From: Candidatus Iainarchaeum sp.
GTDB lineage: Archaea; Iainarchaeota; Iainarchaeia; Iainarchaeales; GCA-2688035
DNA length: 64,000 nucleotides
Reading direction: 5' to 3'
Assembly (NCBI GenBank): GCA_017610205.1
Contig: JAFCCL010000003.1
Coordinates: 32,001 to 96,000 of the forward strand
The notes under the pieces were generated by a model. That model did no database searches. It had not been told where the DNA came from and saw nothing but the letters and a program-made list of their open reading frames with translations. The translations under genes and the position numbers were made by a program. Shown piece after piece: positions 2,020-55,372 of the stretch. Each line of letters begins with the position of its first letter. Position 1 is the stretch's first letter.

Positions 2020-2855
2020 ACGCCTGCAAAACTGGTGATAAATCTCCTAACAGAAGAAGGCTTCCAAAACCAGCAAATGTTATTAAACCGCCTTCAAAGC
2101 AGCCCAAGGCCAAAATTGTTTACAGAAATCGTGAAGCTATTCTTTTGAAACCAAAACAAAAATCTTTTAATCGATAGAATATTGAGTGGGTTTCTATCAG
2201 GGGTTTTATTACTAGTGGTGACTATGGAAAAATTTATTGGGCTAAAATGAAGATTAAGGGAAGACCTTCTCCTCAAAGGATTGTTGTAAAGGTTTTTCAT
2301 CCCGACAAGGAGGCCTATCTTGATTTTGCCGAGATTGTAAAGCGCCTTGAAAAAAGCAATGTTCCACCTTCAAAAATGCAGCTTATTTTCTTTACAGACA
2401 GAAAACAGCATGGGATTTTAATGGAGTCATATATTGGAAATTCTAAAGAAAAAAAGGGTAAAATTGAATCAAAGTTAAAACCGGGTTTTCTTTTTTGGCA
2501 ACTGGATTTGAGCAAAAAAAGAGATAGTGCAATTTTTGCACTGTCTGTAAATGCAACAGCAAAACTGGCTAAAACAGGGCTTTATTTTACTCAGATGTAC
2601 ACTGGGAGTTCTGGGCAGAAAAACATGAGTCCTGGGCCTCTTAGAGTGGATGTTTTTAATGTCATGGAAGCCAAAAGCGGGCAAAAGAAAATTCTTGTTC
2701 AGGACATTGATTCTGTCAGGTTAGGTGCCAGTTCTAAATTTTCTTGGAGGAATTCGACAAATGTTTTGCTTAATACTGTTTCTTGCCGTAGGCCTGAGAA
2801 TGCTGAAATTGCCAGAAAAATTATTGGAAAGGTTGGAAAGAGATACCGTTTCTAA
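2020..2855 (+). pseudogene. Degraded protein-kinase-like orphan; ORF 2247-2855 is the surviving part
   Basis: In frame upstream of ATG 2247 is a Gly-loop-like ITSGDYGKIYW, followed in the ORF by IVVKVF. In-frame TAG at 2175-2177; ACG at 2020 lies 22 nt after TTTAAATA. Confidence 0.55.
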
Positions 2856-2862
2856 AAACTGC

Positions 2863-3270
2863 CTATTTTTCAATTAGAACTGCTTGAACAACGCCTGTTT
2901 GTCCTGGTCTGCTTGTGACTTTTGCAGTTTGTTCTTTTCCTTCAACATTGACCTTTATTTTGGCGCCTTTTGTAATAATGTTTCTTCTGGTAAAAAGTCT
3001 GTTTGCTGCGTTTTCTTCAACGTTTAAAATCTCTGCTTTCATTGCCTTTTTTTGGCCCTTAGCTGTTACTGTGGCAAATTTTGCCCTGTACTGCTTTACT
3101 TTTACAACAGAGCCTTTTACAACCCTGCTTTTTCTTCGCTCGTCGTCTTCTGAAACAATGGTTTTGGCAGGGTCTCCGCCTTTCCATGCAAGCAGTTTGT
3201 CACAGCGCCTTGCGGCTGTCCTGTTTCCGCCTGTTCTTTTCCTTTTGCTCTTTGTATGCCACTGAGTCAT
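2863..3270 (-). CDS. rps8e: 30S ribosomal protein S8e
   Basis: MTQWHTKSKRKRTGG and RRNIITKGA...VTSRPGQTGVV signatures. Confidence 0.97.
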   Translation of the reverse strand: MTQWHTKSKRKRTGGNRTAARRCDKLLAWKGGDPAKTIVSEDDERRKSRVVKGSVVKVKQYRAKFATVTAKGQKKAMKAEILNVEENAANRLFTRRNIITKGAKIKVNVEGKEQTAKVTSRPGQTGVVQAVLIEK

Positions 3271-3417
3271 AAAAACACCAAAAAAAACGAAAATCGCTTT
3301 ACTTGAATAATAATTAATTGAAATGGAAGAATTAAAAAGGCTTGTTTTCGGGATATTTGGATTGTTTAACAGGAACCAGCCTTTATTTTTTGGTTGTAAG
3401 CTTTTTATTAATTTCCG

Positions 3418-3868
3418 CTAAAGTGGTTTTTTCTTAGTCCATGGTAGTGGTGTCTTAGCTCTAGGCAGTCCTTTATTACGCCTTGCTGTTGCTGCTGCTT
3501 TGTATCCTGCATTAATTCTAATCCTTTTTACTTTTCGTTTATACGCTAATAGCTTCTTTTGTTCACGTTTCAGTACCTGGCGATTTGCCTCTGCTACTGT
3601 GACATAATTTTGGGACCCTATCCTGATTTTTCTTAATTTTATTATTTCGTTGACTGTATCTTCTCCCACCTTAAGTCTCCTTGCAAGTTCAGGCATTGTT
3701 ACTAGCTTTCCCTCTATTTTCATATTAAAAACAGTTTCCCCCCATTGCCTTCTCAAATTCCATCCTGCTAAATTTAAACCCACCTATTTTAAGTAAACCA
3801 ATCACTCTGGTTTTTGTAAGTGTTCCTTCTGGTTTAACTAGCGCTATTCTTGAAGGTTTTGCTGCCAT
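3418..3868 (-). pseudogene. Frameshifted HTH (excisionase/MerR-like) orphan, paralog of 25078-25992
   Basis: ATG 3868 frame MAAKPSRIALVKPEGTLTK joins the 3418-3783 frame if one base of the C6 run at 3738-3743 is removed; TMPELARRLKVGEDTV is HTH-like. Confidence 0.6.
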
Positions 3869-3899
3869 ACTATAACATCTACCTTTTAATAGAATTTAA

Positions 3900-6191
3900 T
3901 TATTCCCATTCTGCTTCAACCACCTTTTTTATTTTCTTTGCCTTTTCTTTGCCCATTTTCTCCACTTTTTGTAATTCTTTTGCTTCTGCATTGAAGATTT
4001 TTTTTACACTGCCAAAATGCTTCAAAAGCTTTTTTGCAGTCATTGGTCCGACCAATGGCAGGCTTTCTACTACAAACCGTTGCTGTTCTCCAAGGGTTAA
4101 TCCCTTTCTTCCAATTCGCAGTCTTACATCCGAGCCCTTGCCTTCCTGTTCCCTTTTTGCAATTACGTAAATGTATTGGGCTGTTTCCCTTTTTGATTCT
4201 GTGAAAAGAATTGGAACCCGGTAGTTTAATGCAATAGATGTAAGCATTCCAATTATTGCATTTCTGTGCACGTTTGTTTCAAACAATTTTTCCCGATCTC
4301 CCTCCACTATAACCAAGGGGCGTTCATATGATTCAGCCATGTTAATCAATTGCTTGGAAAGTCTTCTGTCAACAATGCTTGAAACAAAATCTGAAATTGA
4401 TTTTCTTTCAATTACAATTTCCTTTCCTGGAATGTAGTCTCCGACTTCAAGTTGCTTTTCTACAACAGAGCATCCAAGGTCTGCAAGCAATTTTGAAATT
4501 CCTGATTCCCTTTCCCTTACGTCAGCAAACACGACAATTTTTCCACTGCCTTCTGAATCAAAGCTGTTCAAAGTAGTCTGCTTTTCTCCTTTTTTTATTT
4601 CTTCGTTTCCTGTGTCCTTTTTCATCCTATGTAATATCTTATGCATCTTTTTTTCTTTGTTAATACTTGCCCAGTAATATGCTTCGTCTCTGGTATCTTT
4701 TGCCATTAAAATTACTGCTTTTCCTGCAGCAAGCCTTCCTGTTCTTCCCCTTCTTTGAATAAACCTTATTTCGCTTGGAACAGGCTCGTAAAATACTACC
4801 AGGTCAACGCTTGGGATATCTAATCCTTCTTCGGCAACTGATGAGGCTACAAGGCAATTAATTTTTCCTTCTTTTAATTCTTCAATTTTTTCTGCCTGTT
4901 CCTTTTGGCTCATTCCTTTTTCTTTTCCTCTTGCTGCCTGTCCAACAAACCTTTCCGATTTTATTTCCTTGATTTTGTTCAGTTCCTGGTTTAATTTTTT
5001 GATTGAGTCTCTGTAGTGGTTGAATACAATTACACTGCTTTTGGGATTTTCTTCAAATTGCTGATTTAGCACTTTTATAAGGGCATCAAATTTTGGATGA
5101 ATGATTCCTTTTGCTGCAATTTCTTCAGCCATTTCGTTGACCTGAATCATTTCCATGCTTGAAATAAACATTGAGGTTGCCCTGCTTATCTTTCCTGTCT
5201 TTTTTCTTTCCCTTTCAAGGTATAAGCAGAGTGCATTAACTCCTTGGGTTTCAAGCAGTGTATGGGCATGGCTTGCTTTCATTAAGGCTGCTGCTGCTGT
5301 TGCTGCTGCAAAAATGCTCATGTTTTTTCCGTGGCTTGCCTGAATTCTTCTCCTTATTGCTGCCTGCATTTCGATAAGCCTTGCTTTTCCAAAGCCTTTA
5401 AGTGAACTGGTTTTGCTTAGCCTAAATTTGTATAAAACATCGGCCTGTTTTTGCATAAAATGTTCAATAAGTTTTATCATTGACTTGAATTCTGAGGGCA
5501 GTTTAACAACGCGCCATTCAACCTTTATTTTGTGGGAGTAAGGAGTCACGTCCTCATCCTCCAATTCCTTTATTTCAATATTTTTAATGTACAAATTTTT
5601 GCAAATCTCCTTGACATGGTCTTCCTTGCCTCCTGGAGAGGCTGTAAGCGCAAGCACTAGCCCGTTTTTGTTTTTCTTGAATTTTTTTGCAATGTAAACA
5701 TAGGCATATTCTCCCACTGCTCTGTGGGATTCGTCAAAAATTATTAGTGAAATGTCTTTGGCAAAAACACGTTCTTTTCTTAAGTCGTTTTCAATTGTTT
5801 GGGGTGTTGCAACAATTACTACTGCATTTTCCCATTCTTTTGCCCTTTTTTTTGCAGGTGTTGCGCCTGTTAAGAGCGCAACAGAGTCCTTTTCCAACTT
5901 CATTAATTTGAGCATTGTTTTTTTGTGCTGTTCACACAATGGTTTTGTTGGCGCTAGGAAAAGAATTTTTCCAGTTGGCTTTTTTTTCAAAACGTCTGCT
6001 GCAACAAGAACTGCTACAATTGTTTTTCCCAAAGCTGTTGGTGCTACAACAAGACTGTTGCCTCCTTTTGCAACAGATTCTGCAAGCTTTACCTGATAGT
6101 CTCTTTTTTCAACAGCCTTTGCCCTGATAAATTTGTTTTTTACAAAATCTTTTGTCAAACTTCTGTGTTTTTTCTTTTTTTCAGAGGGCAT
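3900..6191 (-). CDS. hef: Hef/FANCM-like DEAH helicase with ERCC4 nuclease and HhH domains
   Basis: APTALGKT, DESH, QRRGRTGR helicase motifs; GDY..IERKS ERCC4 motif; C-terminal HhH. Confidence 0.96.
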   Translation of the reverse strand: MPSEKKKKHRSLTKDFVKNKFIRAKAVEKRDYQVKLAESVAKGGNSLVVAPTALGKTIVAVLVAADVLKKKPTGKILFLAPTKPLCEQHKKTMLKLMKLEKDSVALLTGATPAKKRAKEWENAVVIVATPQTIENDLRKERVFAKDISLIIFDESHRAVGEYAYVYIAKKFKKNKNGLVLALTASPGGKEDHVKEICKNLYIKNIEIKELEDEDVTPYSHKIKVEWRVVKLPSEFKSMIKLIEHFMQKQADVLYKFRLSKTSSLKGFGKARLIEMQAAIRRRIQASHGKNMSIFAAATAAAALMKASHAHTLLETQGVNALCLYLERERKKTGKISRATSMFISSMEMIQVNEMAEEIAAKGIIHPKFDALIKVLNQQFEENPKSSVIVFNHYRDSIKKLNQELNKIKEIKSERFVGQAARGKEKGMSQKEQAEKIEELKEGKINCLVASSVAEEGLDIPSVDLVVFYEPVPSEIRFIQRRGRTGRLAAGKAVILMAKDTRDEAYYWASINKEKKMHKILHRMKKDTGNEEIKKGEKQTTLNSFDSEGSGKIVVFADVRERESGISKLLADLGCSVVEKQLEVGDYIPGKEIVIERKSISDFVSSIVDRRLSKQLINMAESYERPLVIVEGDREKLFETNVHRNAIIGMLTSIALNYRVPILFTESKRETAQYIYVIAKREQEGKGSDVRLRIGRKGLTLGEQQRFVVESLPLVGPMTAKKLLKHFGSVKKIFNAEAKELQKVEKMGKEKAKKIKKVVEAEWE

Positions 6192-8850: not shown

Positions 8851-9100
8851 GCATTAAAATACATGCTTTTGCGTTATAAATACTTTTTCATTTTTCGTAA
8901 CTGCTAACAGCCTCTGAGAATTGGCGTGTAATGCGTTTAATAGCTGATTTAATCGTGTCCTATTTTTTGTCCTATCCTGCTTTGTTTTTTCGTTTTTGTG
9001 TTCTTTTGTAAGTTAAACCACAAATTCAGCATTTTAGCTTTTGCAAGAAATTGAAAAACCGTTAGCAATTACCTTTTTTTCAGACCTTGTAAAAATGGCT

Positions 9101-9135
9101 AATAGCCTGATGTATTCAGGGTAATATAGCTTTTT
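9101..9135. repeat. Cassette-boundary palindromic repeat, copy 1
   Basis: AATAGCCTGA-TGTAT-TCAGGGTAATAT then T-run. Confidence 0.7.
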
Positions 9136-15215: not shown

Positions 15216-15539
15216 TTGGACAACTCTTGGATTAAGTTTAAATGCTTAAAAAGCGTTTTTTATTCAGTTAGAAGGTTTTTTTATGCCAGATTTGCAGGAA
15301 ATATTGGGTCATTAAAAAGAAAGAGAAAACTGATTGCAAAAAAGCGAAAGCATCCTGCAAGTAAAATTAAACTATCGTATGTTACTGAAAGGTTGCCAAC
15401 AAGAGTTGTTAGTAAAAGAAATACTAAAATTTCTCGCGGTACCAAAGTTAGGCGAAGAGCTGGCGAGTCACCTGAAGAACTGATACGCCGGTTTAAAAAA
15501 GCTAGTAAAAGTTATAGGCTGCCAAGATTAAAGCGTTAA
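15216..15539 (+). CDS. Highly basic orphan ORF with a bS21-like C-terminal motif; start uncertain, may be degraded
   Basis: KVRRRAGESPEELIRRFKKAS. Confidence 0.4.
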   Translation: MDNSWIKFKCLKSVFYSVRRFFYARFAGNIGSLKRKRKLIAKKRKHPASKIKLSYVTERLPTRVVSKRNTKISRGTKVRRRAGESPEELIRRFKKASKSYRLPRLKR

Positions 15540-17059
15540 TTTCTATTTTTTCTTGCAACAATGTTCAACATCTTTTCAGTTGCTTTTACTGCTGCCATTA
15601 TTTGGTCTGAGTCAACTCCTATTGTGGAAAAGTTTTTCTCTTCATTTTCCCATGTAATAATTGTTTCAACAAGAGCATCTGTTTTTCCACCTGGGGGAAT
15701 TTTTACCTCATAGTTTGCCAGTACTGGTAGTTTTATTCCTGCTTTTTTGCTTACTTTTGTCAAAGCGTTCATAAAAGCATTGTAACCTCCGTCTCCGACA
15801 GCACTTTCACTGAACTTGTTGCTATTGGCTTCAAGTGTGAACGAAGCACTTGGCTTTATGCCTGTGCCTGAATAAACTTTGCAGTTAACAATTTTGTAAA
15901 AGCTTTTTTCAGGTGTACCAAGAAGATCTGATACAATGAATGGAAGGTCTTCAACTGTCACTGTATTTTTCTTGTCTCCAAGTTCAATAATTCTTTTTAG
16001 TAATTTTTTCTTTTCTTCTTTGCCAAGGCTTAATCCGAGCTTTTCAAGGTTTTGGTCAATGCTTGCTTTTCCGCTTAGTTTTCCAAGAGCATACTGTCTT
16101 TCTTTTCCAAATCTTTCTGGTTTGAGTTCGCTTTCATAAAGTCCTGCTTTTTTGTCTCCGTCTGCATGAATGCCTGCAGTTTGAGTAAAAACATTATCTC
16201 CTGTAATTGGTTTGTTTGCAGAAATTCTTTTTCCTGAAAATGCTTCAACAATTTTGCTTGCTTTTGAAAGCATTTTTTCATCAATATTGCAGCCAAATTC
16301 TGTCTTGTCGTTTAATACAACTGCTAATTCGTCAAGTGGTGTGTTTCCAGCTCGTTCTCCAAGACCGTTTACTGTTGCATGTACTGTGGCACATCCTGCT
16401 TTTACTGCGACCAAACTGTTTGCAACTGCAAGACCATAATCATTGTGTGCGTGAAATTCAAATGCAATATCCGGAAAGTTTGTTACCATTTCTCCAACAA
16501 GCGTTTTTGTTTCTTCTGGTGTTAAAATGCCAAGTGTATCACAAAGGCTTGCTCTTTTTACGCCTTTTTCTTTTGCGGTTTCAACAAGTTGTTTTACAAA
16601 TTCTTTGTTTTCAAACATTCCACTGCTCCAGATTTCTATTCCAAGATTAATTTTCAAACCCTTGCTTTTTGCATAATCTATTGTTTTGCCAAGTTCTTCC
16701 AAATGCAGTTCAGGGCTTTTTTTCAGTTGTTCTTTTATATGAAGCAGGCTTCCTTTTGCAAGAAGCCACATTGTTTCAACTCCTGCTTCAACAGCCCAGT
16801 CAACACTTTTGTTGCTGTCAACAAAGCCGAGAACGCTTAGCTTTTCAAGAAACCCGTTTTCTTTTGCCCATTTGGAAATTTTTTGAACTGCTTCAAGTTC
16901 TCCTTTACTGACTCTTGTGCTGGCAACTTCAATCCAGTCAACTTTTACTTCTGAAAGCAGTATTTTTGCAATGCTGAGTTTTTCTTTTGGAGTAAATGAA
17001 ACTCCCTGGGTTTGTTCTCCATCCCTTAAAGTGGTGTCAAGAATTGTTATTTTTTTCAT
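15536..17059 (-). CDS. cimA: (R)-citramalate synthase, Leptospira/Bacteroidetes-like LeuA/CimA family with C-terminal allosteric domain
   Basis: DTTLRDGEQ, IEVASTRVSKGE, LGFVD, HAHND, NGLGERAGN, IPPGGKTDALV; GGAGG SD before ATG 17059. Confidence 0.88.
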   Translation of the reverse strand: MKKITILDTTLRDGEQTQGVSFTPKEKLSIAKILLSEVKVDWIEVASTRVSKGELEAVQKISKWAKENGFLEKLSVLGFVDSNKSVDWAVEAGVETMWLLAKGSLLHIKEQLKKSPELHLEELGKTIDYAKSKGLKINLGIEIWSSGMFENKEFVKQLVETAKEKGVKRASLCDTLGILTPEETKTLVGEMVTNFPDIAFEFHAHNDYGLAVANSLVAVKAGCATVHATVNGLGERAGNTPLDELAVVLNDKTEFGCNIDEKMLSKASKIVEAFSGKRISANKPITGDNVFTQTAGIHADGDKKAGLYESELKPERFGKERQYALGKLSGKASIDQNLEKLGLSLGKEEKKKLLKRIIELGDKKNTVTVEDLPFIVSDLLGTPEKSFYKIVNCKVYSGTGIKPSASFTLEANSNKFSESAVGDGGYNAFMNALTKVSKKAGIKLPVLANYEVKIPPGGKTDALVETIITWENEEKNFSTIGVDSDQIMAAVKATEKMLNIVARKNRN

Positions 17060-23730: not shown

Positions 23731-24972
23731 TTACCCAAGCTTGTAGAACACAAGTCCGCTTAACAGCTTTGGGTAAAAGAAAGTGCTTTTCTGCGGCATT
23801 GCCTCGCCGGCAAGCGAAACATTCTCAAACTGTTTTATGCTGGCTGGTTGCACGAAGAATACTGCTTCAAATTCACCAGCTCCTGTCAATTCAATTAATT
23901 TCTCAGCATTTTTTTCAAATGAAATGTTGTCCAAGTCAGTGGCAAGTATTTTTTTAAACACAATTGTGTCAAGTGCCACAGTAGCCAAATCCCTTAAAAC
24001 AATTGGCTTTTCTTTAAGCGCTTCATTTGCTTTTCCCTTATTTTTTAGCAAGTGAAATTTTCCTTCAAAGAGCATTCCAATGCAGGGCTTTTTGCCTACT
24101 TTGGTTGCCTGCATCATCCTTTCTTTTTCACATTCTTCAACTTCAAAGAACTCGCTGAGTTTTTTGACAAAGCTTTCCTTTTCTGTCACTTTTTTCAGAG
24201 CCCTGTGTGTTGGCAGAATACGCAGGCCATTACTGTTCAAATTTATAATGCAAACCATTTTGTATTTTGAAGCCTTGCTGCCGTCAATTTCAGAAAACTT
24301 TTCCGCTGTCTCATACCTATGGTGGCCGTCGGCAATGAACATTTTTTCGCCAGAAAGCATTTTTTTAATCTGCATTATCTTTTCCCTGTCTTTTAAAACC
24401 CATAGCCTGTGTCTGCCGGTTTCATTTTCAAAATCCATTTCAGGCTTTTCTTTTGTTTTACTTTCAAAAATAGTTTCAATTCCACTGCCCTGCAGGCTAT
24501 CAAGCAGCATTATTGGCTCAAAATCGCATTTTGTTTCTTTCAAAAGTTCTAATCTGTCCTGTTTTGGCTTTGGCAGTGTTTTTTCGTGAGGAAGCACTTT
24601 ACCGTTTTCAAATGGCTCAAGCCTTAGGAGGCAAAATAATGCTTTGATTGACGCATTTTCTCCTCCAAACGAGTAATCGTTTTTGTAAACATAGAAAGCA
24701 GGCTCTTTTTCCTGCACTAAAATCTCTTTTTGTAGCCATTCATTGACCAGCTTGGCAGCTTTTGTGTAATTTTCCGCTATATGGTTCTTTTCAAACCCCT
24801 GGTTTCCAAGGCTAAGCCTTGCAAAATTGAATTGGTTTTTTTTCAAAAGAAGCTTTCTTTCCTTTTCACTTATGATATCGTATGGAGGTGCCACAAGCTT
24901 TGAAAAACTGCCTGCCTTTTCACTGCAATACTTTACACCTTTAAACGGCTTTACTTCAACCAATGCTTTCAC
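23731..24972 (-). CDS. DUF1015 family protein
   Basis: APPYD, LPHEKT, IADGHHRY, ILPTHR, MPQKSTFFYPK. Confidence 0.92.
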   Translation of the reverse strand: MKALVEVKPFKGVKYCSEKAGSFSKLVAPPYDIISEKERKLLLKKNQFNFARLSLGNQGFEKNHIAENYTKAAKLVNEWLQKEILVQEKEPAFYVYKNDYSFGGENASIKALFCLLRLEPFENGKVLPHEKTLPKPKQDRLELLKETKCDFEPIMLLDSLQGSGIETIFESKTKEKPEMDFENETGRHRLWVLKDREKIMQIKKMLSGEKMFIADGHHRYETAEKFSEIDGSKASKYKMVCIINLNSNGLRILPTHRALKKVTEKESFVKKLSEFFEVEECEKERMMQATKVGKKPCIGMLFEGKFHLLKNKGKANEALKEKPIVLRDLATVALDTIVFKKILATDLDNISFEKNAEKLIELTGAGEFEAVFFVQPASIKQFENVSLAGEAMPQKSTFFYPKLLSGLVFYKLG

Positions 24973-25077
24973 CTGAAGAAAAAGAATTCTTAAACAATTA
25001 AAAACCCGATTGCTTTTTTTTTTTAAGAATCCTTAAATAGAAACAATTAAATTCACTGGCTTGGAAATATTTATTAC

Positions 25078-25992
25078 ATGGCTGGCAGAAAAATTAGTCA
25101 CCGAAGAGGCTTTTTGATGCCTGATCAAATTGTTGAAATATTAAAACAAAGAGGTCTTAAAGCAAACGAAAAAACTATTTCAGATTACGCTCATTCAGGA
25201 AAGATTCCTTTTGGACAGTCTGTTCCTGGGAATAAAAAAGGAATAATGTTTCCTGAAGAAAATCTTGATAGCGTGCTTGCAAAAGTTCCAAAAAAGATGA
25301 TTTTGGCCGAAGGCCAGATTACAAAGCATTGGCTTGTGAAAAAAGCAAGGGAAATGGGTCTTTCAATGAACACAGCAAACATTGATACCTATCTTAAAAA
25401 AATTGCTGAAGGAAAAGAGCCTGTGCCAAAAGGTCTTTTCTTTGACAAATTTGATTCGCACAGAAGGGTTGTAATTCCAAAAGCCGTGGCATTCAAGCTT
25501 CTCAAAGATGCAAAAAGAAGGAAAGCATTGCCAAAACTGCTTGAAACAGGAAAAATTGTTCCGCTTTCCAAAATTGCAACAGATTTAGGTCTAAGCCCAC
25601 GATCTCTTCATGGGAAAAAAGGGCATGGTATCAGCTCTTTTAGAATTGGCAATGGCAGATATGTTGCTGCCAAAGAAGCAGAAAGGTTTAAGGCAGAATT
25701 TATTTCACTGCGTGAAAATGGAAGGCGTTATAAATCGCTAGTGCAAAAAAAGCCTGTGTCAACAGTCGGTGTGAAAAATGCGGCAAAGCCTGTTGGCAAA
25801 AAGACAGCAAGGCCAAAGCAAGTTCAGTCGGCAAATTCGTTGATGCAGAATTGGTTTAATGAAAATTCAAGCAATATGTCTCAAGGCAGGCGTAAGCTGA
25901 TTGAACGGGTTATTAGGCAAAGCAAAAATGTTTCTGTGGAAGAATACTATGAAACTGTACTGCCATTGTTTGAAAGAATTTTTTATCGCTAG
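25078..25992 (+). CDS. Basic orphan with repeated MerR/excisionase-like HTH units
   Basis: EKTISDYAHSGKIP; PLSKIATDLGLSPRSL..FRIGNGRYV. Confidence 0.65.
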   Translation: MAGRKISHRRGFLMPDQIVEILKQRGLKANEKTISDYAHSGKIPFGQSVPGNKKGIMFPEENLDSVLAKVPKKMILAEGQITKHWLVKKAREMGLSMNTANIDTYLKKIAEGKEPVPKGLFFDKFDSHRRVVIPKAVAFKLLKDAKRRKALPKLLETGKIVPLSKIATDLGLSPRSLHGKKGHGISSFRIGNGRYVAAKEAERFKAEFISLRENGRRYKSLVQKKPVSTVGVKNAAKPVGKKTARPKQVQSANSLMQNWFNENSSNMSQGRRKLIERVIRQSKNVSVEEYYETVLPLFERIFYR

Positions 25993-26029
25993 AACTAATT
26001 GAATTTAAGTCTTTGCAAAAAGAAAAATC

Positions 26030-29687: not shown

Positions 29688-30005
29688 TTAAATCTTTCCA
29701 GACTGTTTTTTCTCTTTAGCCATTCTAATTTCAGCTTCTTCTTTTATCAACTTTTTATAAAATCTTCTCAATCTAAAAGCAGCATCAGAGTCTGGGTCAT
29801 CTCCAAGTTGGAAACTATTCCATTTTTGTTTTTTCATGACTTTTTTCATTGTTTTCGTTAGTAACTCATCTGTAAAAATTTGATTCTTTAACATGTTACG
29901 CATTTTGGCAGTTTTTTGTATTTTTGGGTTTCTTCTGAGTATTTTTAAATTTTGTTTTCTTTGCGATACTGATTTTGGACCAGGCTTTATACTTTTTTTC
30001 TTCAT
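29688..30005 (-). CDS. Highly basic orphan
   Basis: MKKKSIKPGPKSVSQRK; ATG overlaps the cysS stop. Confidence 0.5.
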   Translation of the reverse strand: MKKKSIKPGPKSVSQRKQNLKILRRNPKIQKTAKMRNMLKNQIFTDELLTKTMKKVMKKQKWNSFQLGDDPDSDAAFRLRRFYKKLIKEEAEIRMAKEKKQSGKI

Positions 30006-31393
30006 TTTACAACTTTCCACTTTGTGCCCTTTTCAGTATCGTCTAAAAGAATTCCTTTTTCCGCAAGCTTTTCCCGTATCTTGTCTGATTCAGCCCACTT
30101 TTTTTCAGCCCTCAACTTTTCTCTTTGTTTTATTAATTCAAGTTCTGTTTTTCCAATTTCCTGCTTTTGCTCAAAGTCCATTACTGCAAAAACACTATTG
30201 AGCTTTTTTAAAAATCCCAATGCAAGTTTTGAATCTTTTTTGCCAATTTTTTTTGTATCAAGAAGCGAATTGCATTTCCTTACAAATTCAAACAATGCGG
30301 CAAAAGCCAGTGCTGTGTTTAGGTCGTCGTCCATTGCTTTTTCAAACTTTTTTCCGGCTTTTTCAATTACCTTTTTTACATTTCCCAAATCCCTTCCGTC
30401 TGCTGTTTCAAGTTTTGAAATAAGTTCGTTCAGCCTGTCAATTGAGTTCTGTGCCGCTCTCAGTCCTTCAAAAGTAAAATTAAGTGGTTGCCTGTAGTGT
30501 CCTGAAATCATCAGGTATCTTACAGCAATTGGGTTGTTGTCTTTTAAGTCTTGCAGGGTGTAAAAGTTTCCAAGGCTTTTGCTCATCTTTTCCCCATTCA
30601 CCTGCAAAAATGCGTTGTGTATCCAGTATTTTGCAAAAGGCTTTCCTGTTGCTCCCTCTGACTGTGCTATTTCGTTTTCGTGGTGTGGAAAAATCAGGTC
30701 TTGTCCTCCTGAGTGGATGTCAAAACTTTTGCCCAAATGCTTCATGCTCATTGCACTGCATTCAATATGCCATCCTGGTCTTCCTTTTCCAAGTTCTGTT
30801 TCCCAGAAAACAGAACCGTCGTTTTTGTCCCAGGCTTTCCATAATGCAAAATCCTGCGCTTCGCCTTTTTCATATTCATCCTGTTTTACTCTTGCCCCTG
30901 CTTTTAATTTCCTAAAATCAATGTGTGCAAGTTTGCCATAGTCTTTGAATTTTTTTATATTGTAGTAAACGCTTCCGTCTTCTCCTTTGTAAGCGTAGCC
31001 TTTTTTCAAAAGCTTTGCAATTAATTCAACCATTTCTTTTATGTGCTCTGTTGCTTTTGGGTAAATATCTGCCGGTAACACTCTTGAGGCTTTCATATCT
31101 TCAAAGAAGGAATTGGTGTATTTTTCAGTGAATTCTTTTAAGGAAATTCCTTCCTTTTGCGAGTCCCTAATGGTTTTGTCGTCGACATCAGTAATGTTTC
31201 TTACGTGTTTTACTTTAAATCCCTTGTAAAGCAAATAGCGCTTTAAAATGTCTTCTGATAAAAAGCTTTTCAAATTGCCTATGTGAATAACGTTGTAAAC
31301 AGTTGGCCCACAGGTGTACAATCCAACATTCTTTCCTTTTAACGGCTTGAATTCCTCTTTCTTTCTGCTTATTGTGTTGTACAGTTTAAGCAT
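30002..31393 (-). CDS. cysS: Cysteine--tRNA ligase
   Basis: CGPTVY, HIGN, GRPGWHIECSAM, KMSKS. Confidence 0.98.
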   Translation of the reverse strand: MLKLYNTISRKKEEFKPLKGKNVGLYTCGPTVYNVIHIGNLKSFLSEDILKRYLLYKGFKVKHVRNITDVDDKTIRDSQKEGISLKEFTEKYTNSFFEDMKASRVLPADIYPKATEHIKEMVELIAKLLKKGYAYKGEDGSVYYNIKKFKDYGKLAHIDFRKLKAGARVKQDEYEKGEAQDFALWKAWDKNDGSVFWETELGKGRPGWHIECSAMSMKHLGKSFDIHSGGQDLIFPHHENEIAQSEGATGKPFAKYWIHNAFLQVNGEKMSKSLGNFYTLQDLKDNNPIAVRYLMISGHYRQPLNFTFEGLRAAQNSIDRLNELISKLETADGRDLGNVKKVIEKAGKKFEKAMDDDLNTALAFAALFEFVRKCNSLLDTKKIGKKDSKLALGFLKKLNSVFAVMDFEQKQEIGKTELELIKQREKLRAEKKWAESDKIREKLAEKGILLDDTEKGTKWKVVK

Positions 31394-34540: not shown

Positions 34541-34681
34541 AAATAAAACCCCTTGAAAGAATTCACAATAAAAGCGTTTTAAACCTATTGCCCTTCTCAA
34601 GGTTGTTTGTATGGCTTGTTTTTGTTAATATTTTAATCTCCTCATAAAAAGATTAAATACCAGATTTCCACCCTATTTTTT

Positions 34682-35230
34682 GTGATGAATTCAAAAAAAG
34701 TTTCCAGCAAGCCCAAGCCATTCTCTCCAAAAAATAGAAAAAGTTTTGCAAAAAAAAGAGAAAGGCTGCAAAGGCAACAAAAAAAGGCTGCAAAGTGCAG
34801 AGCATTAGAGGACTATAAGAAATTTTCCTCTGAAGAGAATTTATGCAGGATTGTGAAACTAGTTACTTCTTTGCAGACACAACATAAGTGGACTGAAGCA
34901 AATACAGTAAATAACCTTTAATGGAATAATTAGGGGCATTGCAGTTCAAAGAGCCTTGATTGGTATTGGCATACTGGACAAAGCCAAAGTTAGGGAAATT
35001 CAAGAATTAACAGAAGGTATAACGCCCGGAGTGAGCTGGTATTGGGTGCTGGCAGGTCATTGGCAAAGTCAGATGAAAAACTGAATGAAATACCTAAAGA
35101 GTTAACAGAATGTTTTGGTGGATTCTTAAAGTCACATATCTTTGAGTTAAAAGCCGCTTTTTTTAAAAGAATGCTTGCGAACAAGCTGAAAAAAATTTTC
35201 GAAAATCGGTTAAAAAATGCTTTGCAATAA
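34682..35230 (+). pseudogene. Fragmented basic orphan
   Basis: ORFs 34682-34921 (MNSKKVSSKPKPFSPKNRK) and 35042-35230 with broken coding-like sequence between. Confidence 0.45.
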
Positions 35231-35239
35231 TTTTTTATT

Positions 35240-36454
35240 ATGGGTTTGAACAAAAAGCAGGTGTTTGCATTTCTTGAAGAATTACAGGGTGGTGGAATAA
35301 AGCTTGGGTTGGAGCGCATAGAAAAATTTCTCACCTTTATTGGAAATCCTGAAAAAGAATTCAAGTCTGTTCACATTGCAGGCACAAACGGCAAGGGCAG
35401 TACTGCTACAATGATTGAACAAATTTTAAGACAGGCTGGTTTTAAGACCGGTCTGTTTACAAGCCCCCATCTTGTCTGCTTCAATGAAAGAATTAGGGTT
35501 AACGGTGTTGAAATAAGCGATAAATATCTGGTTAAGCTTGTTGGTGAATTGAGGAAAGAAATGAAAAAAAGCGGAATTGAATTAAGCTACTTTGAGTTTA
35601 TTACAGCGCTTGCATTCAGGCACTTTGCAAATTCAAAAGTCGATATTGCCATAATTGAAACAGGAATGGGCGGCAGGCTTGATGCAACAAACGTTATACA
35701 TCCTCTGGTTTCTGTGATTACAAATATTGCAATGGAGCACGAAAAGTATTTGGGAAGCACTTTTGCACAGATTGCTGGAGAAAAAGCAGGAATAATAAAA
35801 GAAAAAGTCCCGGTTGTTACTTCTGCCAGAAACGATATAGTGCTTAGTGTGATTCGAAGAGTGTGCAGGGAAAAAAACAGCAGTCTGTCCATTATACAAA
35901 GACCTTTGTTTAATGAAGTTGGCATGAAAGGCATTTTTCAGGGATGGAATGCTGCTTTGGCAGTGGCTGCTGTAAAGCAATTAAAGTTAGCTGGTTTTGA
36001 AGTGGGAAAGCAGGCAATTGAGGAAGGGCTTTCTCTTGCAAAGATTTCATGCAGGTTTGATATTGTAAGAAAAGAACCAATTGTTATACTTGATTGTGCT
36101 CACAATCCTGCCTGTTGTGTTGTTCTTGCAAAATCTTTTGCAAAAGAGTTTCCTGAAAAAAAGGCACTGCTTGTTTTTGGAGCAAGCAAGGGTAAAAATG
36201 TTCTGGCAATGGCTAAAAGGCTTGCTCCTGTTTCCAAAAAAGTGTTTGTTACCAGTGCAAAGTACAGGGCAATGGATACTGAAAAGATTGCAAAAGTGTT
36301 TGAAGACCTTGGGCTAGAAATTGAAGTTGTTAAAAATGTTGAAAATGCTGTGAAGAAAGCAATTTCTTGCGCAAAACAGGGTGACGTTGTGCTTGTAACC
36401 GGAAGCTGTTTTGTTGCAGGGGAAGTTTTGGAATTTTTTAAAAAAAAGGAATAA
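35240..36454 (+). CDS. folC: Folylpolyglutamate synthase/dihydrofolate synthase
   Basis: HIAGTNGKGST, FTSPHL, ETGMGGRLDATN, LDCAHN. Confidence 0.96.
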   Translation: MGLNKKQVFAFLEELQGGGIKLGLERIEKFLTFIGNPEKEFKSVHIAGTNGKGSTATMIEQILRQAGFKTGLFTSPHLVCFNERIRVNGVEISDKYLVKLVGELRKEMKKSGIELSYFEFITALAFRHFANSKVDIAIIETGMGGRLDATNVIHPLVSVITNIAMEHEKYLGSTFAQIAGEKAGIIKEKVPVVTSARNDIVLSVIRRVCREKNSSLSIIQRPLFNEVGMKGIFQGWNAALAVAAVKQLKLAGFEVGKQAIEEGLSLAKISCRFDIVRKEPIVILDCAHNPACCVVLAKSFAKEFPEKKALLVFGASKGKNVLAMAKRLAPVSKKVFVTSAKYRAMDTEKIAKVFEDLGLEIEVVKNVENAVKKAISCAKQGDVVLVTGSCFVAGEVLEFFKKKE

Positions 36455-42091: not shown

Positions 42092-42138
42092 TTTTTTAAA
42101 GAATGAACCCGCAATATTTTTGTATGGTTTATTTTTTC

Positions 42139-42558
42139 ATGGCAAACAAGCCAAAACTTCAAAAGCCAAAGAAGCCAAAGGTTTCAAAACACGTTTTAAC
42201 TTCTGAAAAGATTGCCCGCCTTGCAAGGCTGCAACATGCTGAAAAAATAAGGGCTAACAAAATCGGGAATGAATTTAAACAATCTCTTCTTGCCAAAAAA
42301 ATTTCAAAAGAAGTTGAGAATTTGACAAATGAAGTGGAACTGTTGCTTGCCATGAGAAAATTAGAGCAAAGCGCAATTAATGATGCAAAAATAAAAGCTC
42401 TTCTTATAAAAGGCGCTAAAAAAAATTTGGCTTTCTTTAAAAAATTGCTTAATTTTGCTGTTTCAAAAAATGCAAACCACAAATACCTTGAGCACCTTAG
42501 AGAGAATATAACTGAGGCTCTAGAGCATGTTGAAAATGCGGAGAATTTTAAGTTTTAG
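42139..42558 (+). CDS. Basic helical orphan
   Basis: MANKPKLQKPKKPKVSK N-terminus followed by amphipathic helices. Confidence 0.55.
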   Translation: MANKPKLQKPKKPKVSKHVLTSEKIARLARLQHAEKIRANKIGNEFKQSLLAKKISKEVENLTNEVELLLAMRKLEQSAINDAKIKALLIKGAKKNLAFFKKLLNFAVSKNANHKYLEHLRENITEALEHVENAENFKF

Positions 42559-43832
42559 CCCTTCCTGTTCAATGCCTTTTGTCCAATGTCTTTTCTAAAC
42601 TGCATTCCTTCAAAGGAAATTTTTTCAACTGCTTTGTAGGCGTTGTCAATTGATTCCTTGATTGTGTTTCCGCTTGCTGTAATTCCAAGAACTCTTCCTC
42701 CGTTTGTAACAACCTTTCCGTTGTCTGCTTTTGTTCCTGCGTGGAAGACAATTGTTTCAGTGATTTTTGAATCCTTTTCAAGCCCTGTAATTTCTTTTCC
42801 TTTTTCGTATTTTCCAGGATAGCCTCCTGATGCCATAATAATGCAACAGTATGCTTTTTGGCTCCATTTAACTTCCTGTTCTGCAAGATTTCCTTCAATG
42901 CATGCCTGCATTATTGAAATTAAGTCAGAGTCAAGCCTTGGAAGAATAACTTGTGTTTCAGGGTCTCCAAAGCGACAGTTGAATTCAACAATTTTTGGCC
43001 CTGTTTTTGAAATCATTAACCCTGCATAAAGAATGCCTTTGAATTCCCTTCCTTCTTTTGCCATTGCATCAACTGTTGGCTGCATTATTTCTTTCAAAAT
43101 GCGTTGTTCCATTTCTTTTGTTACAATTGGTGCAGGAGAGTATGCCCCCATTCCTCCTGTATTTGGCCCCTTGTCGTTGTCAAAAATTCTTTTGTGGTCC
43201 TGGCTTGAAACCATTGGCTTGATGTTTTTTCCGTCTGTAAAAACAAGATAGCTTGCTTCTTCTCCCAAAAGCTTTTCTTCGAGTACGATTTTGCTTCCTG
43301 CTTCTCCAAACCTTTTGTCAGTCATCATTTCATCAATTGCTTTTTCTGCTTCTTCAATTGTTTCGGCTACAACAACTCCTTTTCCTGCTGCAAGGCCGTC
43401 TGCTTTTACTACAACTGGTGCTTCTTTTTCTTGCAGGTATTGTTTTGCTTTTTCTGCGTTGTCAAAGGCGGCATATTCTGCACTTGGAATTCCATATTTT
43501 TTCAGCAGGTCTCTTGTAAAAAGCTTGCTTCCTTCAATTGCAGCTGCCTTTTTGCTTGGGCCAAATGCATTAATTCCTTTTTCCTGCAAAAAATCCACAA
43601 TGCCTTCAACAAGCGGGTTTTCGGGTCCGACAAACACCAGTCCGATTTCTTCTTTTTTTGCGAATTCTGCAATTTTTTCAAATTCGTCAACTTTTATGTC
43701 AACGTTTTCTCCAACAAGTGCTGTTCCTGCATTGCCTGGTGCAATAAAGACTTTTTCTGCAAGAGGGCTTTGCATTAGCTTTCTTGCAACAGCATGCTCT
43801 CTTCCTCCGTTTCCAATTACCAAAATTTTCAT
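42555..43832 (-). CDS. purD: Phosphoribosylamine--glycine ligase
   Basis: GNGGREHA, KADGLAAGKGV, QDHKR, NTGGMG, RFGDPE. Confidence 0.98.
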   Translation of the reverse strand: MKILVIGNGGREHAVARKLMQSPLAEKVFIAPGNAGTALVGENVDIKVDEFEKIAEFAKKEEIGLVFVGPENPLVEGIVDFLQEKGINAFGPSKKAAAIEGSKLFTRDLLKKYGIPSAEYAAFDNAEKAKQYLQEKEAPVVVKADGLAAGKGVVVAETIEEAEKAIDEMMTDKRFGEAGSKIVLEEKLLGEEASYLVFTDGKNIKPMVSSQDHKRIFDNDKGPNTGGMGAYSPAPIVTKEMEQRILKEIMQPTVDAMAKEGREFKGILYAGLMISKTGPKIVEFNCRFGDPETQVILPRLDSDLISIMQACIEGNLAEQEVKWSQKAYCCIIMASGGYPGKYEKGKEITGLEKDSKITETIVFHAGTKADNGKVVTNGGRVLGITASGNTIKESIDNAYKAVEKISFEGMQFRKDIGQKALNRKG

Positions 43833-51731: not shown

Positions 51732-53192
51732 ATGGTTGGAAAAGACATTTTACATGTTAAAGAGGCGTTGACCTTTGATGACGTTCTACTTGTTCCTGGT
51801 TCAAGCAAAATTTTGCCAAAAGACGTTAATCTAAACACAAGGCTTTCAAAGAAACTAAAAATTAACATTCCTCTGGTTTCTGCTGCAATGGACACTGTTA
51901 CTGAATCGCAGACAGCAATTGCAATTGCAAGAGAGGGTGGAATTGGAATAATTCACAAAAATTTAAACGCAGAACAGCAGTCGGCAGAAGTAAGCAAGGT
52001 TAAAAGAAGCGAATTTTTGATTGTAAGCAATCCACTGTGTGTAAGCCCTGATAACTCCTTACAGCAGGTTTTTGAATTGCAGAAAGCAAAGGGCATTGGA
52101 AGCTTTCCTGTTGTAAAAAACGGAAAGCTTGTTGGAATTTTGACCCAAAGAGACCTTTCCTTTGAATCGGATTTTTCAAAAAAGGTTTTGGAACTTATGA
52201 CAAAAGACGTTGTAAGCATTGACCACAAGCCAAGCATTGATGAAGCAAAGGAAATTTTGCACAAGTACAGGATTGAAAAATTGCCAATAATTGATTCAAG
52301 TGGAAAAATTACCGGAATGCTTACTGCAACAGACATTAGAAAGCAGGAGCTTTATCCAAATGCTGCCAAGGACAAAAAAGGCCAGCTTGTTGTAGGTGCT
52401 GCGGTTGGAGTAAATGACAGGGAAAGAATTGGAAAACTTATTGAAGCAGGGGTTGACACCATAGTTGTTGACACCGCTCACGGCCACAGCAAAGGTGTTG
52501 TTGAAGTAGTTAAACGCTACAAAAAACAATTTGATGTCGAGCTTATTGCGGGAAATGTTGCAACACCAGAAGCAGTACATGACCTTGCATCAGCCGGAGC
52601 AGACGCTGTAAAGGTAGGTGTTGGGCCAGGAGCAATTTGTACTACCAGAATAATAAGTGGTGTTGGCGTTCCGCAATTTACTGCCGTTCTTGAATGCAGT
52701 AAAGCGGCAAAAAAATACAATGTTCCAATTATTGCCGATGGTGGCATTCGCTACAGTGGCGACATTGTTAAAGCCTTGGCTGCAGGGGCTTCAAGCATTA
52801 TGCTTGGCTCGCTGTTTGCAGGCTGTGAGGAAACCCCTGGCAGGACGGTTTTTCTTTACAACAGGAAATTTAAACAGTACAGAGGAATGGGTTCTTTGGG
52901 GGCAATGCAAAAGGGCGGAAAGGAAAGATACTTTCAAGGCGATGTAAGTGATGCAAGCAAGCTTGTGCCTGAGGGTGTTGAAGGAATTGTTCCCTACAAA
53001 GGAATGGTTAGTGAAATGGTTTTCCAATTGCTTGGAGGGCTTCGTTCAGGAATGGGAATGATTGGAGCAAAAGACATTGCTACCTTGAAAAAGAACACTA
53101 AGTGGATTAAAATTACTGCTGCAGGAGTAAAGGAATCACACCCTCACAATATTAATATTACTGAGGAAAGCCCAAATTATTCAGGAAAGTAG
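51732..53192 (+). CDS. guaB: IMP dehydrogenase with CBS pair
   Basis: [34 protein letters not shown]. Confidence 0.98.
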
Positions 53193-53206
53193 TTATTTTT
53201 TGTTTT

Positions 53207-53887
53207 TTAAGGGGTTAATTCTAACTCGTGGCGCTCAATATACTCTCTTAATTTAGTTTTTACCCTTGATATTCTACTTTTAACTATTGAAACATTCTCG
53301 CCCAAATGTTTGGCTGTTTGTTCTAATGTCCTAGGAGACCTGTCTGAGTATACATAAGATTCTCTAATTTTATAACGGTATGCAAAAGTTTTTTTTGACT
53401 TTTCATCAATTCCGATTTTTTTTAAAATATTCCCAACTACATTAAACACCCCTTGTTCAGGCATTTCAACTTTTGCCCTTTTGTCAACCATTTTGAGAAA
53501 CATTTCAAAAGACCTTGTTTGAGCCAACTTTCTTTCATATTTTTCCTGTCTTAAAATATTACGCATTGCATTTTTTGCTGTTCTCAAAAAATAATGTCTT
53601 GTTTTCCGAACAGACGGCATTCCTGCAGCAGTCATGATGTGTATCACGGCTTCTGAAATCATTTGGTCATGAAGTGAATTTTTTTCACTAGGTTTTTTAT
53701 CCCAGGGTGATGCCTTTTTTACATATGGTTTCTTTCGTGCATACCTTTCTGCCATTTTTTCCAGAATAGGCATGATTGGCTCTACAAATTTAGCATATCT
53801 TCTTTCTCCTTCTGCTTTTGGCATCTGCAGTCTTTTAGCAGTCTTAAATCCCATTACTCTCTTTTCCGGCCTATTTCTTAACACCAT
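53207..53887 (-). CDS. Sigma-70-like protein (divergent sigma2 and sigma4)
   Basis: KFVEPIMPILEKMAERY, YFLRTAKNAMRNILR, RTLEQTAKHLGENVSIVKSRISRVKTKLRE. Confidence 0.7.
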   Translation of the reverse strand: MVLRNRPEKRVMGFKTAKRLQMPKAEGERRYAKFVEPIMPILEKMAERYARKKPYVKKASPWDKKPSEKNSLHDQMISEAVIHIMTAAGMPSVRKTRHYFLRTAKNAMRNILRQEKYERKLAQTRSFEMFLKMVDKRAKVEMPEQGVFNVVGNILKKIGIDEKSKKTFAYRYKIRESYVYSDRSPRTLEQTAKHLGENVSIVKSRISRVKTKLREYIERHELELTP

Positions 53888-53943
53888 AACACAATTAGTT
53901 CACTGCTGATTAATAATCTTTTCTAAATAAATTAGTTTTTGCT

Positions 53944-54643
53944 TTACGCAATCCCTTTCAAGTAAGCAAGCCTTTTTTCTTCTTCAAACCTTTCAATTGC
54001 ATACCTTAGCATAGTGCGTGGCATTTTCTTGTAGTGCTTTTTTCAAAAACTTTTCTTCCACTGCCAAATCCCTTTTTCCAACTTCTCTTAACATCCAGCC
54101 AACTGCTTTGTGAATGAGGTCGTGTTTGTCGTGCAAAAGAATTTCTGAAATTTTTAACGTGTCGTCAAAATCGTTGTTTTTGATAAATGCAAGCGTTGAA
54201 ATTATTGCAATCCTTTTTTTCCAAAGTTTGCTTGATTTGGCAAGCTTGTACAAAACCTGCCTGTTCTTTTTCATTAAATACACTCCCACAATCTTTGGAG
54301 CAGTTAGGTCTACTAAATCCCAGTTGTTTACTCCCTGCAGGTTTTCAAAATAAAAATCAAATACCTTTTTTTTCTCAGCATCGTCTGCTTTTTCAAACTT
54401 TTCTACCAGAATCAGCAATGCTACAAGCCTTTCCTCGTGAATTTTTGAATTCAAAAAAGGCTTTAGTTTTTGCAGTTCAATTTCACTGAATTTTTTTGCA
54501 ACCTTTCTTTGCTCTCCAACACTTGCCCCGATAAAAACGTCGCCTTCACCATACTGTCCCTTTCCTGTTTTGAAAAAACCCTGAAGTATTTTTGCCTTTT
54601 CCGGGTTAGAATGAATTGCAATTTCTTGCTTTAGAGAAATCAT
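53944..54643 (-). pseudogene. AlkD-like DNA alkylation repair protein with a +1 frameshift near the 3' end
   Basis: NNWDLVD, HKAVGWMLRE; conserved tail MPRTMLRYAIE lies in another frame after the T6 run at 54038-54043. Confidence 0.8.
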
Positions 54644-54778
54644 TTAAAAACCAACATTACTTCTTTGCCGCAAGTCCATTCAGAAGCTTTTTTTTTATTT
54701 AAAATAATTAGGCCTGTTTTCCATTAAAAGTTGTTACTTATTCCTTTTTTCCCCTCCGAACTATTATGGGAATTAGTT

Positions 54779-55372
54779 CTATTTTTCTGAAAGCATTTCC
54801 TTCAATTTTTTTCTTGCATTGAAGATAACCCTTTGAGCTGTTCCTGTTGGAACGCCAAAATGTGCAGCGGTTTCCCTGTATTTCTTTGGAGTGTTTCCTC
54901 CAAGGCCTGTGTGGTGGAGAAACATTGCCTTGTCCCTTTGGCTTAAATCAGAAACGTCCACAAGCATTTTTACAACCTTTATTATTTCCTTCTCATTTGA
55001 CCTGCCTAACTTGTTCAAAATATTCTTTGTTCCTGGGTTTCTGTTTGAACTAGTTGTGATATATTCCCTGATGGTTCTTCTGTAGCTTCTTTCAGCTAAG
55101 GCATCGTTTAGCATAGAATGTCTTGCAATAACTATTGCAAAGTTTTGTTTGGGTCTTCCTTTTTGATAATTGCCTGTTCCGGAAACAATTTTTAAGGTGG
55201 CCTTTGCCAAATAATCTTCTGCCAGTTCACGCTTTCCGTTTGCAATCCTTAGAGCCATATGCCCTAACGTTTTCTCAAATGGCTTAACAAATCGGTTGAA
55301 CCTTTCTTCCGCAACATTCTGTTTCTTTGGCCATTTTTTCATCCACGCAGGGTTTGCTTTTTTCTTTGCCAT
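54779..55372 (-). CDS. ECF-type sigma-70-like protein (sigma2 plus sigma4)
   Basis: RFVKPFEKTLGHMALRI..RELAEDYLAKATLK, FAIVIARHSMLND, LSQRDKAMF, YRETAAHFGVPTGTAQRVIFNARKKLKE; TTTAAATA about 20 nt before ATG. Confidence 0.8.
   Translation of the reverse strand: MAKKKANPAWMKKWPKKQNVAEERFNRFVKPFEKTLGHMALRIANGKRELAEDYLAKATLKIVSGTGNYQKGRPKQNFAIVIARHSMLNDALAERSYRRTIREYITTSSNRNPGTKNILNKLGRSNEKEIIKVVKMLVDVSDLSQRDKAMFLHHTGLGGNTPKKYRETAAHFGVPTGTAQRVIFNARKKLKEMLSEK

Follow-up and report, generated by a model that had tools for sequence, protein, structure and literature searches.

Nine genus-variable slots in a chromosome segment of Candidatus Iainarchaeum sp. and the putative nucleic-acid-binding proteins that many of them may encode

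Our analysis of a 64,000-nucleotide stretch of Candidatus Iainarchaeum sp. (contig JAFCCL010000003.1 of assembly GCA_017610205.1, positions 32,001 to 96,000; hereafter the window) has shown that nine solitary loci wedged between housekeeping genes, several of them with products that start with a segment rich in lysine, arginine and proline, form the accessory part, variable within the genus, of a chromosome segment whose gene order is otherwise conserved; they probably do not make up a single repertoire with a shared tag. We put at about 55% the probability that these loci mostly encode fast-turnover accessory nucleic-acid-binding proteins with basic arms rather than effectors. Five of the loci would then represent four small, lineage-restricted families with nucleic-acid-related folds, comprising two sigma-70-like proteins, two helix-turn-helix (HTH) proteins and one dead kinase. 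On this view the Lys/Arg(-Pro) segment, inherited within each family, would be the place near the N-terminus at which the positive charge of the whole protein is highest; in the cytoplasm such segments would act as short, flexible arms that raise the affinity for DNA or RNA in a non-specific manner. The analogy with ribosomal proteins and initiation factors encoded by this genome, whose N-termini are of the same kind, suggests that the arms bind nucleic acids.

The genome harbouring the window comprises 1.37 Mb on 24 contigs with 37.7% G+C and an estimated completeness of 92%; the window lies on its contig 17, and the organism is labelled a DPANN-type archaeon, a label that we take over. In what follows, loci are named by c plus a coordinate, G000 is the window's own genome and other G numbers are relatives. 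A simple coding model of our own called 1392 genes at a coding density of 85%, and the well-scored genes are preceded by a ribosome-binding signal rich in G, at positions -13 to -7, together with a weaker signal rich in A/T around -30. A six-frame scan recovered the N-termini quoted in an earlier note on this DNA at 42139(+), 34685(+), 55372(-), 53887(-), 3868(-) and 30005(-), as well as the remaining three open reading frames (ORFs) at 25078(+), 15216(+, TTG start) and 2007-2855(+). Conservation was mapped by searching the DNA of window positions 1-60000 in five genomes of the same genus, and protein-level searches covered 40 relative genomes. Eleven stretches of at least 150 bases had no DNA match in any of the five genomes, and nine of these are exactly the nine loci (Table 1). 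The housekeeping genes between them share 66-92% DNA identity and are matched in three to five of the five. The DNA map and the protein searches agree with the earlier description of the loci as dispersed and of high turnover, in that they are solitary, lineage-restricted and quick to come and go. Under the ordinary reading that we prefer, this amounts to a clean map of the negotiable genes in a reduced archaeal genome.

Two of the loci, c53887 and c55372, had been described as sigma-like, and a family profile, the Pfam scores of paralogues and the c55372 model all point to relatives of sigma-70 of the extracytoplasmic function (ECF) type. The two genes and a third one on contig 11 are paralogues, and the genome contains four sigma-like genes. 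Their own Pfam matches are sub-threshold (Sigma70_r2, cut-off 24 bits: 15.1 bits for c55372 and no match for c53887; Sigma70_r4, cut-off 24.1 bits: 16.5 bits for c53887 and 15.3 for c55372). Other members of the family pass the gathering scores, namely L002 (r2, 35.3 bits), the genome's own paralogue L006 (r2, 24.3 bits), L043 (r2, 32.1 bits) and L005 (r4, 30.6 bits). An eight-member profile matched bacterial SigA over regions 2 and 4 with an expect value (E) of 2e-10, region 4 alone scoring 25.5 bits. The AlphaFold model of c55372, with a predicted local distance difference test score (pLDDT) of 85, has a predicted two-domain sigma fold; its top 12 Foldseek matches are ECF sigma factors at probability 1.0, with template modelling (TM) scores of only 0.30-0.35 over two domains. 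A word-based homologue search with c55372 returned nothing beyond the protein itself and one protein at 65% identity, and in an exhaustive search of 1.84 billion proteins the number of representatives rose from 11 at E<=1e-30 to 45 at E<=1e-10 and to 6091 at E<=1e-3. Judged by these sequences, the clade is small and appears to merge into the sigma-70 superfamily. Of the 40 relatives, 15 have a Sigma70_r2 match, whereas four archaeal control genomes have none; c55372 itself has a protein match in four relatives.

The history of the c53887 slot can be followed across genomes. A syntenic orthologue stands beside guaB (which we take to encode IMP dehydrogenase) in G007, a genome of another genus, and the slot in G006 consists of 869 bp that contain a Sigma70_r2 match. 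It is closed in G002, G003 and G004, where guaB and DNA-alkylation-repair blocks abut within 0-10 bp. The slot has been retained in three genomes (G000, G006 and G007) and cleanly lost from three. A second sigma-like gene lies upstream of the G007 orthologue (L007, contig 4, 89-789) in two overlapping ORFs of 164 and 79 aa, and is possibly another decaying copy. The fourth sigma-like gene of the window genome, L043 on contig 10, codes for 302 aa with a Lys/Pro-rich N-terminus; neither it nor the adjoining gene for a 186-aa basic protein (contig 10, 69172-70713) has a DNA match in the five sister genomes.

Similar to group 4 (ECF) sigma factors such as SigH, SigE/RpoE and SigW, the proteins described here would have a two-domain sigma-2/sigma-4 fold of about 200 aa. 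In contrast to these bacterial factors, with which they share 16-20% identity, they have a basic N-terminus, sub-cut-off Pfam scores and no known partner, and their host encodes an archaeal transcription factor B (TFB; Pfam TFIIB and Zn_Ribbon_TF). The portion of Castelle et al. (2021; PMC8204110) that treats fam00359 reports sigma-70 genes in DPANN archaea, especially Woesearchaeota, without anti-sigma factors. As described in that portion, fam00359 resembles the genes of the window in being archaeal, in its sigma-2 and sigma-4 domains and in its patchy presence; the clade of the window is distinguished by its small size, its conserved basic arm and its genus-variable position, and it may belong to fam00359. 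The role of bacterial-type sigma relatives in archaea is an open question raised in the same part of PMC8204110, and we have now defined a sigma-like clade of small size, with a basic arm conserved at the N-terminus, that can be tested at the bench.

Two further bodies had been called HTH, and weak, sub-cut-off matches bear them out as HTH_17/excisionase-like. The c25078 protein matches HTH_17 (PF12728) at 18.3 bits and E 0.0029, below the 27-bit cut-off; it has matches in 10 of the 40 relatives, all within its own family (10 of 22 genomes), and a 432-aa paralogue on contig 3 (C3:175935-177233). Both pieces of the 3868 gene, which has weak matches in three relatives, align to a single protein of G014 (213 aa), whose locus c25078 matches too. 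Excisionase and regulator families of PHROG were matched at E 0.0016-0.0025, Atlas matches for c25078 gave leads below 0.9 only, and a profile search with the c25078 family retrieved no solved structure. Taken together, the weak leads that Pfam, PHROG and Atlas gave for these two genes suggest a likeness to the excisionase/MerR-like family PF12728, from which they differ in their scores below the curated cut-offs, their repeated modules and their unknown C-terminal domain.

The kinase-like body proposed for the first locus is supported by the predicted structure of an intact homologue, and the copy in the window is broken. Its frame has no start codon after the stop at 2004 and no ATG, GTG or TTG before 2022. 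The homologues read F-x-L/M-E/A-N-V-E/Q-W where the window reads F-N-R-stop-N-I-E-W, with TAG at the E/A position, and the basic, Pro-rich N-terminal region lies upstream of this TAG. Three of the 40 relatives (G004, G007 and G035) have full-length homologues, which measure 268-305 aa, and a search of 5.8 billion proteins retrieved six members of the family, all unnamed. The blocks of TFB and of the presumed ribosomal protein S8e (named by eye, as was a Hef-like helicase/nuclease in the window) lie 20-30 bp apart in G002 and G004, and an 870-bp kinase-like remnant sits there in the window genome. The model of the G004 homologue (pLDDT 74) has Rio1 (Foldseek E 1e-5) and Bud32 (TM 0.49) as its top folds. 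Within its kinase-like fold, which covers about 220 aa, a Gly-rich loop and an ATP-binding lysine are predicted; G81 and G84 of the loop and the N-lobe-aligned K105 are invariant in eight sequences. Sequence evidence alone is weak here (PDB E 0.004; Pfam PK_Tyr_Ser-Thr E 0.007 and 16.2 bits against a cut-off of 23.1), and a Pfam scan of the family gave no RIO or Bud32 match. RIO and Bud32 kinases, with the same predicted fold, Gly-rich loop and invariant lysine, are the best structural matches; the family of the window differs from them in its extra, conserved basic N-terminal region of 65 aa and in the missing Pfam match. It may be regarded as an undescribed RIO/Bud32-like kinase family, now defined and open to bench tests.

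Our results also show that the Lys/Arg(/Pro)-rich N-termini are real and rare genome-wide. Leaders were measured on residues 2-21. At least six Lys+Arg together with at least two Pro were counted in 31-32 of 1392 proteins under two start rules (2.3%) and in 8 of 1030 out-of-frame ORFs (0.8%), a composition that therefore sets the leaders apart both from typical housekeeping N-termini and from what AT-rich ORFs produce at random. Five of the six quoted leaders, all except that of c3868, rank in the top 3.5-6.8% for Lys+Arg and the top 1.4-5.1% for net charge (n=1392). We found no motif shared by the leaders: the mean pairwise local score of eight leaders was 20.7, compared with 19.8 +/- 0.9 for composition-preserving shuffles, 15% of which reach the observed value. 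No shared N-terminal signal was detected by this test across the unrelated bodies, and the similarity is compositional only. Leaders are conserved within their own families. All 10 closest representatives of the sigma clade start net-positive (by reading), with a basic stretch followed by an RWPxKxxAExRYxxFVEP-like motif; the N-terminal 65-aa basic region of the kinase family can be aligned; and c25078 orthologues have a basic decapeptide and then GFLxPxQ. In the c55372 model roughly the first eight residues are unstructured and residues 9-28 are helical, with a block-mean pLDDT of at least 85 from residue 11. The bodies are net positive as well, and the isoelectric points (pI) of all nine products, 10.06-11.84, fall in the 89th-100th percentile of the proteome.

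The company that such leaders keep elsewhere in the genome points to nucleic acids. Pfam matches (E<=1e-3) were obtained for 14 of 32 basic-leader proteins, and 11 of these 14 are nucleic-acid proteins, compared with 8 of 20 among length-matched controls (Fisher p=0.038, classed by reading). The 11 are S4, S27a, aIF1A, aIF2-gamma, Top6A, TFB, two sigma-like proteins, MarR, an IS66 transposase and an HTH/LAGLIDADG protein. The rate of Pfam matches itself did not differ significantly from that of the length-matched controls (14/32 against 20/32, p=0.21; 15/32 if an Internalin_N match is counted). The N-terminal extensions of S4, S27a, aIF1A and aIF2-gamma have the same composition in the same genome, but these four are universally conserved, whereas the proteins of the nine loci are accessory. 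A subset of the accessory pool thus has the Lys/Arg/Pro look and, where a family can be assigned in the window genome, its members are mostly sigma-like and HTH.

Several observations weigh against the reading that we prefer. The three ORFans and c42139 have no recognisable DNA-binding domain, and we know of no partner for a sigma-70-type protein in an archaeon. Proteins without a Pfam match are commoner among the basic-leader set than among the controls, though not significantly (18/32 against 12/32, p=0.21). The net charge per residue of five proteins is +0.30 to +0.40 over the first 20 residues and +0.07 to +0.17 over the rest. When variable and conserved genes of the window were compared, using our own start calls and not those of the earlier note, N-terminal net charge was 3.89 in the variable genes (n=9) and 0.83 in the conserved ones (n=42; one-sided Mann-Whitney U test, p=0.0014), and the N-terminal Pro counts were 1.56 and 0.45 (p=7.5e-5). 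Given the excess of N-terminal charge over the body and this difference within the window, a basic N-terminus may be a class-wide property of variable genes. In addition, the solitary gene at the junction of purB and the cysteinyl-tRNA synthetase (CysRS) gene has a Lys/Arg/Pro-rich start in three of four sister genomes (L093 in G003, L090 in G004, L091 in G006).

The difference between orphan and conserved N-termini that the earlier note had expected stood in the window, but it was weak and non-significant in three replicate regions, the middle 20 kb of contigs 16, 10 and 19, which were chosen by rule. In these regions (10 variable and 34 conserved genes) net charge was 1.30 against 0.50 (p=0.17), Pro 0.70 against 0.68, and net charge of at least 5 was found in 2/10 against 0/34. 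Among their variable genes are some for proteins whose N-termini resemble ordinary hydrophobic signals, one for a pilin-like protein and one for an acidic repeat protein, as well as L043 with its basic neighbour. With window and replicates pooled, net charge of at least 5 was seen in 6 of 19 variable and 4 of 76 conserved genes (p=0.004; the window had been pre-selected), meaning that roughly one in three of the sampled variable genes has a strongly basic N-terminus.

The earlier note had interpreted the loci as a repertoire of effectors, secreted or injected into a host by an episymbiont, with the basic leader as a novel export signal and bodies that manipulate host information processing. 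Fast turnover and pseudogenisation of loci would be in keeping with such a set, as would the enrichment of N-terminal charge and Pro in the window's variable genes, the further solitary genes with Lys/Arg/Pro-rich starts in variable slots of sister genomes, and bacterial-type sigma factors that have no obvious use with archaeal RNA polymerase. However, the leaders lack a common motif and are family-specific, whole proteins are basic, the assignable folds are of DNA-binding type, most of the c55372 'leader' is predicted to be folded onto the sigma-2 domain, and the same composition is found on ribosomal and initiation-factor N-termini. The three unselected regions did not reproduce the pattern, and secreted-looking variable proteins there use hydrophobic or pilin-type signals. 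Eight matches to T2SSE, the secretion/pilus ATPase, were obtained in six open frames of the genome, but such ATPases occur in 13 of 14 control genomes and are therefore uninformative on export. TatC was not found in the 92%-complete genome, and inspection of the sequences by eye for known export signals (Sec, Tat, class III/pilin) revealed no hydrophobic stretch after the leaders. On these sequences an export leader appears unsupported rather than refuted, and we consider an effector repertoire very unlikely. A more specific version, that a DPANN set of sigma-, HTH- and RIO-like proteins with arms resembling nuclear localisation signals is passed through a cell-cell bridge and reprograms host transcription and ribosome biogenesis, or else that the cell's own archaeal RNA polymerase uses the sigma-like proteins as alternative initiation factors, seems to us, with both options taken jointly, highly improbable. 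The effector idea would matter much more if it were true, but the evidence does not favour it.

Carriage by mobile elements or viruses, with DNA-binding proteins that serve the element and come and go with it, is rather unlikely for the set as a whole and plausible for c55372. This gene lies in a 3.2-kb segment that G002 and G004 lack, the repair gene and the tRNA-Leu region being direct neighbours there, and it stands beside tRNA-Leu and an insertion sequence (IS) of the IS66 family. Phage sigma factors of PHROG were matched at E 5.6e-6, in addition to the excisionase and regulator families mentioned above; the distribution is patchy and multi-copy; and a TATA-like hexamer is located 22-38 nt upstream of the start in five of nine loci, compared with 24% of 699 well-scored genes. 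On the other hand, no integrase, capsid or replication gene adjoins any of the nine loci, each slot is occupied by one gene only, PHROG matches are missing for 7 of the 10 scanned proteins, and c55372 lies outside the IS ends. The c53887 slot holds a sigma-like gene in two genera, which fits the loss of a resident gene rather than repeated insertion. For the loci other than c55372, carriage is not shown. There is also the prospect that no common cause exists, the loci being a reader's selection from a Lys-rich, high-pI proteome in which several of the smallest ORFs are not genes. The proteome indeed has a median pI of 9.18 and 10.4% Lys, 6.0% of its proteins have an N-terminal net charge of at least 6, the replicate regions show no significant difference, and the three smallest ORFs have low or no coding-model support and no relatives (see below). 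We find this unlikely, since classes drawn independently from DNA conservation still separate N-terminal charge and Pro in the window, the pooled counts differ as given above even if the window was pre-selected, and the leader composition is so infrequent among out-of-frame ORFs. Accessory nucleic-acid-binding proteins with basic arms thus remain the explanation that we prefer.

Additional observations were made on the IS66-family element beside c55372. It spans 55524-57229 and is bounded by 20-nt inverted ends (55524-55543 and 57210-57229) that are 85% complementary, and its transposase is seemingly split between two ORFs (56510-57001 and 55532-56455). A second copy on contig 16 (33489-34638) shares 87% identity over 1150 nt. 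A 55-nt sequence (57846-57900) that adjoins tRNA-Leu(CAA) at 57902-57987 is present in at least nine copies on six contigs, with several copies in each same-genus genome.

The smallest ORFs are candidate genes only, as far as their sequences tell. The c15216 frame had been called bS21-like, a reading that we rejected: no ribosomal-protein family of Pfam, S21 included, was matched up to E 0.1, and no relatives were found in the 40 genomes. It also lacks an ATG and any promoter-like or Shine-Dalgarno-like signal, and the coding model did not call it; 15216-15539 is therefore probably a non-coding indel junction and not a gene. The very basic c30005 has no relatives in the 40 genomes and a coding-model score of 9.6. 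It overlaps the gene at 30002-31393, which we take to be cysteinyl-tRNA synthetase-like, and in G002 a different basic ORF, of 91 aa, is in the same overlapping position. A match of c30005 to Internalin_N (E 6.2e-5, below the family's cut-off) was judged spurious and left uncounted. The coding model did not call c34685, which has no credible relatives in the 40 genomes (two matches at E 0.004-0.008 are stop-filled); the corresponding slot contains a basic ORF of 149 aa in G002 and nothing in G004 or G005. Genome-wide protein searches with c30005 and c34685 gave no match in G002 at E<=0.01. Weak matches of c42139 were found in two of the 40 relatives, both of the same genus, and an Atlas search gave no usable match; by sequence, it appears to be a member of a genus-restricted family of no known fold.

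According to the earlier note, at least three of the loci are pseudogenised. This is solid for the kinase-like gene, with its TAG and its lack of a start codon. In the 3868 gene the frame is shifted by one base within a run of six G, possibly through an error of assembly, and c15216 was perhaps never a gene. The housekeeping gene purE is likewise split in G004 (contig 83), into L100 and L101 covering query residues 2-124 and 142-237, and single indels are therefore weak evidence of gene death in these assemblies.

Table 1. Nine loci of the window, with the stretches lacking a DNA match in five same-genus genomes.
Feature	Coordinates	Strand	Unmatched stretch	Remarks
Dead copy of a small RIO/Bud32-like kinase (predicted)	2007-2855	+	1994-2863	open from 2007; TAG at 2175-2177
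HTH (excisionase/MerR-like) gene in two frames, 3868-3725 and 3783-3418	3418-3868	-	3353-3935	frame change in G6 run 3738-3743
ORF with TTG start, probably non-coding	15216-15539	+	15220-15545	no ATG anywhere; at edge of 2-kb segment absent in G002 and G004
304-aa protein with repeated HTH_17-like modules, Lys-rich linker and conserved C-terminal domain	25078-25992	+	23735-26029	HTH_17 sub-threshold
105-aa very basic ORFan, candidate gene	29688-30005	-	29712-29989	ATG overlaps stop of cysteinyl-tRNA synthetase-like gene by 4 nt
78-aa very basic ORFan, candidate gene	34685-34921	+	34593-35246	divergent purE-folC-like spacer; TATA-like hexamer about 30 nt upstream
139-aa protein of no known family, leader MANKPKLQKPKKPK	42139-42558	+	42097-42559	weak relatives, genus only
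ECF-type sigma-70 family protein, 226 aa	53207-53887	-	53209-53953	adjoins guaB-like gene
ECF-type sigma-70 family protein, 197 aa	54779-55372	-	54650-57821	in 3.2-kb genome-specific segment beside IS66-family element and tRNA-Leu
Unmatched stretch besides the nine loci			1-626	
Unmatched stretch besides the nine loci			8906-9102	

Some other variable genes were noted in and around the window. A 358-aa gene that runs off the window start (1-626) and a 413-aa gene at 23731-24972, adjoining c25078, have no DNA match in the sister genomes, and neither N-terminus is basic or Pro-rich. In G002 and G004 the NAD-gene and purL-like blocks adjoin each other, and the segment 15220-17210 is missing from this position; it contains a 507-aa gene that we take to resemble isopropylmalate/citramalate synthase. 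The purB-CysRS junction measures 70 bp in the window genome and holds a different solitary gene in each sister genome. The junction gene of G005 is pilin-like, and that of G006 resembles, by eye, a 259-aa protein encoded on contig 11 of the window genome.

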